From Escherichia phage KM01: DNA of 64,000 nt. The position numbers and the translations under genes are program-made. Positions 22,376 through 22,642 of this stretch are shown here, piece after piece (the first letter of the stretch is position 1; each line of letters opens with the position of its first letter). The DNA lies in sequence record PV018827; one strand, 5' to 3'. A model generated the notes under the pieces. That model was not told the DNA's origin, made no database searches, and was given only the letters and a program-made list of their open reading frames with translations.

Positions 22376-22376
<1 letters not shown>

Positions 22377-22642
22377 TATTCTATTCCACGCTCTTTCAGA
22401 GCTTCTAACAATCCGTTGTGATTGGCAGCACATTCTGTGTACTGGTCCTGATACCACTCCAACGTAGTGGCTAGTGCTTTTCCTTGAGCACTCTCTAAAA
22501 GAGGTAGGTCAACCCTACATTCAGCTTTTAGGTTTGTTGGTAAGGGCATTGATTGCCTGCTGTTGTCGCTCATTGAACAAGCTGATAAACTAAAAGCTAG
22601 CAAAATCCCCGTACAACTCAATAGCTTTTTCTTTATATGCAC
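22376..22642 (-). CDS. small outer-membrane-type lipoprotein
   Basis: Likely GTG start at 22642 after AAGGAG; signal MHIKKKLLSCTGILLAFSLSAC with lipobox LSAC; ~62-aa mature protein with 2 further Cys. Confidence 0.55.

Follow-up and report, generated by a model that had tools for sequence, protein, structure and literature searches.

A predicted o-spanin gene separated from its i-spanin partner by an HNH endonuclease cassette in Escherichia phage KM01

What does a small lipoprotein gene encode when its start codon and most of its signal peptide lie within the gene of a homing endonuclease? This question is raised by positions 22376..22642 of a 64,000-nucleotide stretch of Escherichia phage KM01 (sequence record PV018827), which is referred to here as the window. 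The DNA of the window is 95–98% identical to phiEco32, MN03, Paul and other Kuravirus podophages, and we assign it to a phiEco32-like podophage (Kuravirus). The gene at 22376..22642 is very probably the o-spanin of a two-component spanin. Its partner would be the i-spanin encoded at 23072..23416, and the two genes have been separated by insertion of an HNH homing-endonuclease cassette. The insertion between the spanin genes is itself shown by sequence comparison with endonuclease-free relatives.

The lipoprotein gene and its family

The o-spanin gene, its parts and its partner are located as follows.

22376..22642, minus strand: o-spanin gene, encoding an 88-residue prolipoprotein with a GTG start; the mature domain is one residue off the Paul o-spanin QEG08131.
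22580..22642, minus strand: o-spanin signal peptide, residues 1–21 (MHIKKKLLSCTGILLAFSLSA); residues 1–19 are cassette-derived, the HNH 3' end being read in its +1 frame, and cassettes of the SU7 type have ATG at the same position.
22577..22588, minus strand: lipobox L-S-A-C; the Leu is cassette-derived and S-A-C is native.
22379..22579, minus strand: mature o-spanin, 67 residues (Cys22–Glu88), with C42 and C71 conserved and a predicted C-terminal helix at residues 54–84.
23072..23416, minus strand: i-spanin gene, 114 residues, matching phrog_1152 'Rz-like spanin' (E-value 6e-35) and Paul QEG08132, with a transmembrane segment at about residues 8–23 and one periplasmic Cys.

Residues of the o-spanin, a minus-strand open reading frame (ORF), are numbered from the GTG at 22642, and the frame ends with the TAA at 22376–22378. 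The full 88-residue translation is MHIKKKLLSCTGILLAFSLSACSMSDNSRQSMPLPTNLKAECRVDLPLLESAQGKALATTLEWYQDQYTECAANHNGLLEALKERGIE, and the N-terminus of the prolipoprotein is MHIKKKLLSCTGILLAFSL-SAC. An AGGAG is found 6 nt upstream of the GTG. An alternative in-frame ATG at 22666 would add 8 residues and leave the signal unaltered. The PROSITE rule PS51257 is satisfied by MHIKKKLLSCTGILLAFSLSA followed by C, with a pattern match, the Cys at position 22 and a Lys among the first seven residues; it is also satisfied by the Paul, SU7 and metagenomic homologs. A lipobox match by itself is weak evidence for a lipoprotein, and the window holds four matches to the rule against 0.9 expected in shuffles. The decisive evidence is conservation across homologs: none of the 18 aligned family members departs from the lipobox Cys or from C71, and C42 is close to invariant. 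The mature protein begins with C-S-M-S, and the residue at +2, Ser and not Asp, predicts sorting to the outer membrane. Periplasmic Cys are present on both sides of the pair, C42 and C71 in the o-spanin and a single one in the i-spanin (YNVCASD). The AlphaFold model made from the 18-sequence alignment shows the signal helix, an extended linker and the long C-terminal helix. Elsewhere in the window, a 268-residue ORF (47204..48010, minus strand) also matches the regular expression for a lipobox (…VAGLLGC), with an N-terminus that is charged throughout; this is probably a chance match and no lipoprotein.

Membership of the o-spanins was judged after Summer 2007 and Kongari 2018. The lipoprotein has a predicted signal peptidase II (SPII) signal, no Asp at +2, an i-spanin neighbour, periplasmic Cys and a place in a catalogued family. 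In the Paul record the ortholog is annotated as o-spanin (LipoP SpII) and overlaps the i-spanin gene, and the orthologs in ShigP1 and SU7 carry the o-spanin annotation as well. phiEco32 is listed among the two-component spanins of the overlapped kind, its two genes sharing 116 nt; its i-spanin was put in the JH2/Felix O1 family, and its o-spanin was grouped in a small family with NJ01, ECBP2 and KBNP1711 (Kongari et al. 2018, PMC6139136). In its mature domain the window protein is almost the same as the NJ01 and phiEco32 entries of that table.

The wider family supports the same assignment. A close-homolog profile, searched against 1.8 billion representative proteins, matched 26 small proteins at E ≤ 1e-3, and nearly all of them have a lipobox immediately before the aligned Cys. 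The pattern common to the family is C-S-T...NL..KC...LP.L.G.TG...Y..CA.RHN.LVD. The model phrog_2425 is matched by 18 of the 18 aligned members and phrog_456 'Rz-like spanin' by 11, while Pfam PF23793 'Rz1-like lysis system protein LysC' is likewise matched by 11 of the 18, with a best E-value of 4e-8. Compared with P2 LysC, the broad family profile reaches 77% probability (E 2e-5), and the lipobox Cys and two others are in register; with the close-family profile alone no alignment to P2 LysC was found. A viral fold search (BFVD) ranked the Paul o-spanin first, and other annotated o-spanins were weak. Pfam, NCBIfam and PADLOC scans of the window lipoprotein gave nothing useful, and the family profile, run against PDB sequences, produced no more than a chance match (E 1.2).

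A sequence-only reading of the window had already proposed a lipoprotein ORF here, with an LSAC lipobox and two additional Cys in the mature protein, and each of these is borne out. Its mature length of about 62 residues is too short, the actual length being 67 with the lipidated Cys included. Of the two functions that it had named, the o-spanin gains support from the annotated orthologs, the listing of Kongari et al. 2018 and the LysC and phrog_456 matches among relatives. The transmembrane protein at 23072–23440, which it had suggested as a partner, is the i-spanin described above.

A 57-residue ORF starting at the internal Met32 (MPLPTNL...) is what is called in phiEco32 (35273..35446), ShigP1 (2477..2650), EK010 (3004..3177) and clusters P0003-P0006. 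Because these calls omit the signal peptide and the lipobox, many records wrongly show the o-spanin as a hypothetical protein, and the full ORF corrects this common error.

The HNH cassette and its junctions

The insertion was delimited with an alignment of endonuclease-free Paul, 101114UKE3 and ECBP2 and endonuclease-carrying EK010, E20-1, SU7 and Bas87. The endonuclease-free target sequence is ...GATGAGTATGTCAGCTTGTTCAACGAGCG..., and the features of the occupied locus are these.

22584..23128, minus strand: HNH homing-endonuclease cassette, a 545-bp insertion absent from endonuclease-free relatives; its ends are ambiguous by 2 nt.
22590..23048, minus strand: HNH_3 + AP2 endonuclease ORF, 152 residues, GTG start (ATG in EK010); HNH_3 8.7e-16, phrog_99 5e-57.
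23072..23128, minus strand: cassette-borne replacement tail of the i-spanin (SLFNQRQKEAERVLKSKE, then stop), a homolog of the lost tail, recoded and with its own stop codon.
22521..22583, minus strand: relic of the old i-spanin tail (SLFNERQQQAINALTNKPKS, then stop), in frame after the TAG stop of the HNH gene and overlapping mature o-spanin residues 21–40.
23086..23181, minus strand: vestige of the old o-spanin start, with an intact ribosome-binding site, ATG and signal-like MRKLNQFFIMSALVMSM; a 31-codon dead end with no lipobox Cys.

In endonuclease-free Paul and phiEco32 the o-spanin and i-spanin genes share 116 nt. Across the junction, the endonuclease-free allele has ...GATGAGTATGTC followed by AGCTTGTTCAAC.... 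One frame gives the i-spanin tail ...DEYVSLFNERQQQAINALTNKPKS and its stop, and the +1 frame gives the o-spanin signal ...VMSMSAC, followed by STS. The cassette enters between the o-spanin signal codons ...VMSM and SAC, that is, where the h-region meets the lipobox, and with 20 i-spanin codons still to come. Both spanin reading frames stay complete because the ends of the cassette encode replacements. For the i-spanin this is the recoded tail; in the SU7-type cassette its first 11 residues are identical to the old copy (11/11) while 8 of the 11 codons differ, which indicates a translated copy under protein-level selection. For the o-spanin, the 3' end of the cassette supplies AGGAG, 6 nt, GTG and then MHIKKKLLSCTGILLAFSL, which is joined to the native S-A-C. 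The last 18 HNH codons, taken in the +1 frame, yield the new signal sequence, and the HNH ORF overlaps the o-spanin ORF by 53 nt. Between the i-spanin stop and the o-spanin start there is a gap of 429 nt, filled by the HNH gene. The vestigial old o-spanin peptide, MRKLNQFFIMSALVMSMSLYLTRDRKKLRGF and a stop, runs into the cassette and may still be made as a small, hydrophobic translation product; the old o-spanin frame of SU7-type phages ends at the junction itself (TAG).

The C-terminal motif of the HNH protein, AYKEKA.EL.GDF..F, appears pre-adapted to this second use, its +1 frame giving a Lys-rich n-region and then a hydrophobic h-region. We regard the cassette as likely to be a self-contained mobile module, whose ends replace the i-spanin tail and the o-spanin signal, the latter overprinted on the pre-adapted HNH motif. 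If this is true, a selfish endonuclease has invaded a dual-coding overlap of lysis genes with neither gene killed, and an overlapped spanin architecture has become a separated one in one homing event.

The distribution of the cassette is that of a mobile element. In a collection of 50,697 phage records it is carried by six phages (EK010, E20-1, SU7, PAS59, Bas86 and Bas87). The copies of EK010 and E20-1 are 95–98% identical to that of the window, or 96% in the search of the collection, and the copies of SU7, PAS59, Bas86 and Bas87 about 71%, and the two variants, about 71% identical to each other, share the same junction. The flanks of the window cassette are 98–100% identical to Paul and ShigP1 on both sides, and the flanks of SU7 are 98% identical to those of its endonuclease-free sister 101114UKE3. 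The EK010 i-spanin is just 75–89% identical to that of the window, though the cassettes are 95–98% identical, and the left crossover lies no more than about 12 nt from the cassette. Judged from these alignments, such precise presence or absence in near-identical backgrounds is the mark of a free-standing homing endonuclease. Apart from the window, the same collection has nothing that combines a phiEco32-type backbone with this cassette.

The AP2 match of the HNH protein (4e-6) is under Pfam's gathering score, and its relatives in the viral contigs scanned are distant homologs only, with 33–42% identity. The HNH ORF has no recognisable ribosome-binding site, and a conserved EEFLSYDE is found upstream in frame with no start codon (23049..23080); these start features suit a gene that is weakly translated, as those of homing endonucleases typically are. 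The same leftward cluster holds another HNH endonuclease ORF, of 133 residues, at 18606..19007 (minus strand). phiEco32 carries a pair of HNH genes at the equivalent position, so the region is a hot spot for endonuclease genes.

Weighing the o-spanin assignment

We infer that the cassette-borne signal peptide is used and works. Both cassette variants retain a start at the same position (GTG here, ATG in SU7), a ribosome-binding site and a rule-compliant signal despite many substitutions, and SU7_31 is annotated as O-spanin from the cassette-internal start.

Several points weigh on the other side. Topology signals, gene architecture and remote homology are what the o-spanin assignment is built on. 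Against Pfam LysC the window protein gives no match at E ≤ 0.1 and against phrog_456 a marginal one (E 0.011), and since it is not significant against LysC on its own, its homology to LysC is only transitive. Confidence in the structural model is only moderate (pLDDT, the predicted local distance difference test, is 71), and an earlier model from an 8-sequence alignment was unusable (pLDDT 54). The mature protein is helical with three Pro only, versus the proline-rich Rz1 of lambda. The spanin genes lie about 19 kb from the holin and endolysin genes, an arrangement with a precedent in T4. When the HNH tail was synonymously recoded in a simulation, a rule-compliant +1-frame signal with a start codon arose in 5–16% of cases, a frequency not low enough for the overprinted signal to be taken as proof of selection, or as strong evidence for it. 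The ratio of nonsynonymous to synonymous divergence (dN/dS) of the mature domain is low, 0.09–0.17, and counts in favour of the assignment, but it does not establish that the o-spanin still works after the insertion because the flanks are nearly identical to endonuclease-free alleles.

These last two points would also suit an insertion that inactivated the o-spanin, the ORF being a recent orphan with a fortuitous signal and lysis proceeding without a working spanin. The flanks have been shared too recently with endonuclease-free alleles to reveal selection after the insertion, and lambda can do without its spanins in laboratory cultures that are shaken and lack divalent cations. We find this explanation improbable. 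All six carrier isolates and the window keep the ORF, the same-position start and a compliant signal across variants only about 71% identical, a strong ribosome-binding sequence precedes the o-spanin start, and a protein-conserved replacement tail of the i-spanin is sensible only if spanin function is preserved.

Another explanation places the HNH gene in a self-splicing intron. Splicing would rebuild the overlapped mRNA, the o-spanin would be made from the ATG at 23181 with MSAC, and LSAC would be a by-product. In the GenBank record of Bas87 (PQ850594.1, 1462..2354) the Rz-like spanin is indeed annotated as a join of two segments, one on each side of the HNH gene. The i-spanin still contains the ribosome-binding site, ATG and signal-like peptide of the old o-spanin, and the old i-spanin tail remains behind the HNH stop codon. 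Unusually low, too, is the synonymous divergence of the first 54 nt of the mature o-spanin coding sequence (22526..22579, 18 codons), with a dS of about 0.15 versus 1.4–2.0 downstream, even between endonuclease-carrying phages; the relic of the old i-spanin tail largely overlaps this stretch. Such a low dS is, however, best explained by dual-frame coding in endonuclease-free alleles together with repeated re-derivation of the flanks from those alleles. Rfam scans for group I and group II introns gave no match at E ≤ 10 in the window or at E ≤ 1 in SU7 and EK010. The ORF takes 459 of the 545 nt, so that about 80 nt on the 5' side and 6 nt on the 3' side remain for a ribozyme core, and no placement of the junction pairs an exon-final U with an intron-final G. 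The i-spanin frame runs on into a homologous, protein-conserved tail with its own stop, the insert length is no multiple of three, and in SU7-type phages the old o-spanin frame meets TAG at the junction, which splicing would be unable to restore. We therefore hold an intron to be very unlikely. An intein was rejected on the length of the insert, not a multiple of three, and on stop codons in the i-spanin frame.

Least likely of all is the other function named in the sequence-only reading, a superinfection-exclusion or receptor-blocking factor of the T5 Llp or phi80/N15 Cor type made before lysis: a small, predicted outer-membrane lipoprotein from a non-structural cluster remote from holin and endolysin would suit it, but PHROGs, Pfam, PADLOC, NCBIfam, PDB and the BFVD fold search gave no similarity to an exclusion or defence family, in relatives without the endonuclease the gene overlaps that of the i-spanin, LysC and Rz-like spanin models are matched by members of the family, and no receptor-binding protein gene adjoins, the tail genes being on the other strand and more than 5 kb away.

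Taking the lipoprotein as an o-spanin, its mechanism can be modelled on lambda Rz/Rz1 and T4. The prolipoprotein would be exported, lipidated at Cys22 and cleaved by signal peptidase II, and with Ser rather than Asp at +2 it would be sorted to the outer membrane. Its periplasmic domain would bind the C-terminal part of the i-spanin, giving a complex that spans the periplasm, and C42, C71 and the single i-spanin Cys would probably form homotypic disulfides. After removal of the peptidoglycan by holin and endolysin, the complex would disrupt or fuse the outer membrane and the phage would be released. With the o-spanin, the lysis set of the phage (holin, endolysin, i-spanin and o-spanin) would be complete. 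The other lysis genes and the signals around the spanin genes are as follows.

2394..2612, plus strand: putative holin, a homolog of phiEco32 gp16, from annotation alone.
2641..3132, plus strand: endolysin, Pfam Phage_lysozyme 4e-32; phiEco32 gp17.
23435..23452, minus strand: terminator-like hairpin and T-run just upstream of the i-spanin; an annotated terminator in Paul.
24280..24288, minus strand: exact copy of the phiEco32 gp36 sigma-factor promoter element TAATGTATA, the nearest upstream on the coding strand.

The o-spanin gene sits between the i-spanin and HNH genes on one side and the macro-domain and sigma-factor genes on the other. The sequence-only reading was correct in placing it between a macro-domain gene (downstream; Pfam Macro 8e-11) and an HNH homing endonuclease (HNH_3 + AP2, upstream) and in placing it far from the endolysin, which is about 19 kb off and on the opposite strand. 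What it missed is that the HNH gene is an insertion in the spanin overlap and the source of the o-spanin start codon and most of the signal peptide. Its term 'early region' is imprecise: the sigma factor of phiEco32 is a middle gene, and a gp36 promoter element (consensus taken from PMC8948821) lies upstream. Later papers and this promoter motif point to the middle expression class for the o-spanin. The spanin genes of T4 are likewise remote from holin and endolysin. In the lambda model, spanins are kept inactive by the peptidoglycan until endolysin acts, and for this reason early synthesis of a spanin is compatible with its function.

The exact TAATGTATA at 24280..24288 (minus strand) falls in a gene-poor gap of about 550 bp (24221..24766), together with a second exact copy at 24352..24360 (plus strand) and near-matches at 24270 and 24361; the gap may be a divergent promoter region. 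In Felix O1-like myophages (JH2, EC6, momo and others), a 70-nt stretch is about 80% identical to the second half of the podophage i-spanin gene. It was located at 805–874 of the SU7 segment 1250–2420, and this similarity suggests that spanin cassettes have been exchanged among unrelated phage groups.

Comparison with known spanin systems

The closest known system is the o-spanin of the phiEco32 family. The 67-residue mature domain is the same as in Paul QEG08131 except for T24M, with the same three Cys, the same i-spanin and the same position upstream of the macro-domain and sigma-factor genes. In the window, however, the two genes are separated instead of overlapping by 116 nt, the signal is MHIKKKLLSCTGILLAFSL in place of MRKLNQFFIMSALVMSM, and the start is a GTG inside the HNH gene. 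The insertion point and the position of the o-spanin start are shared with vB_EcoP_SU7 (SU7_31), Bas86, Bas87, PAS59, EK010 and E20-1. These phages have a Suseptimavirus-type local backbone, whereas that of the window is of the phiEco32 type. The SU7-type cassette, about 71% identical to the present one, uses an ATG start, and the EK010 and E20-1 records call the truncated 57-residue ORF only.

Two systems resemble the locus more distantly. Like P2 LysC (PF23793), the prototype of the overlapped o-spanins, the protein here is a small lipoprotein with the lipobox Cys and two others at matching positions and a ...CA..(H)N..L... motif; unlike in P2, the partner i-spanin is of the JH2/Felix O1 type and not LysB. 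As in T4 PseT.3/PseT.2, the genes are separated and remote from holin and endolysin, and a C-terminal helix is predicted for the o-spanin, which carries two periplasmic Cys. There is no detectable sequence similarity to the T4 proteins, however, and the separation in T4 is not due to a homing endonuclease.

The T5 family offers the nearest parallel for the insertion. The spanins of T5 are overlapped, while those of Shivani and phiR201 are about 700 bp apart with a GIY-YIG homing endonuclease, and the differences from T5 are limited to the very end of the i-spanin C-terminus and the o-spanin signal (Kongari et al. 2018, PMC6139136). Common to both cases is a homing endonuclease gene that parts two spanin genes whose counterparts in relatives overlap. 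The cases differ in spanin family, the two being unrelated, and in endonuclease, which here is of the HNH + AP2 class and not GIY-YIG. At the present locus the direction of insertion, the exact junction, the recoded tail and the signal overprint can be read from the alignments. Our literature search found no paper on endonuclease-split spanins in Gordonclarkvirinae.

The predicted o-spanin function, annotated in relatives, and the separation of spanin genes by an endonuclease, with its precedent in the T5 family, are thus already known. What the locus adds is another spanin family, unrelated to that of T5, another class of endonuclease, insertion as the unambiguous direction, a recoded tail and an overprinted signal. 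It is a natural experiment, readable base by base, in how a mobile element pulls overlapping genes apart. It points to the i-spanin's extreme C-terminus and the whole signal peptide of the o-spanin as swappable parts, and to how readily another reading frame could give rise to a functional export signal. Should this be confirmed, the locus would be a second and better-resolved case of the endonuclease-driven change in spanin architecture that was proposed for T5-like phages.

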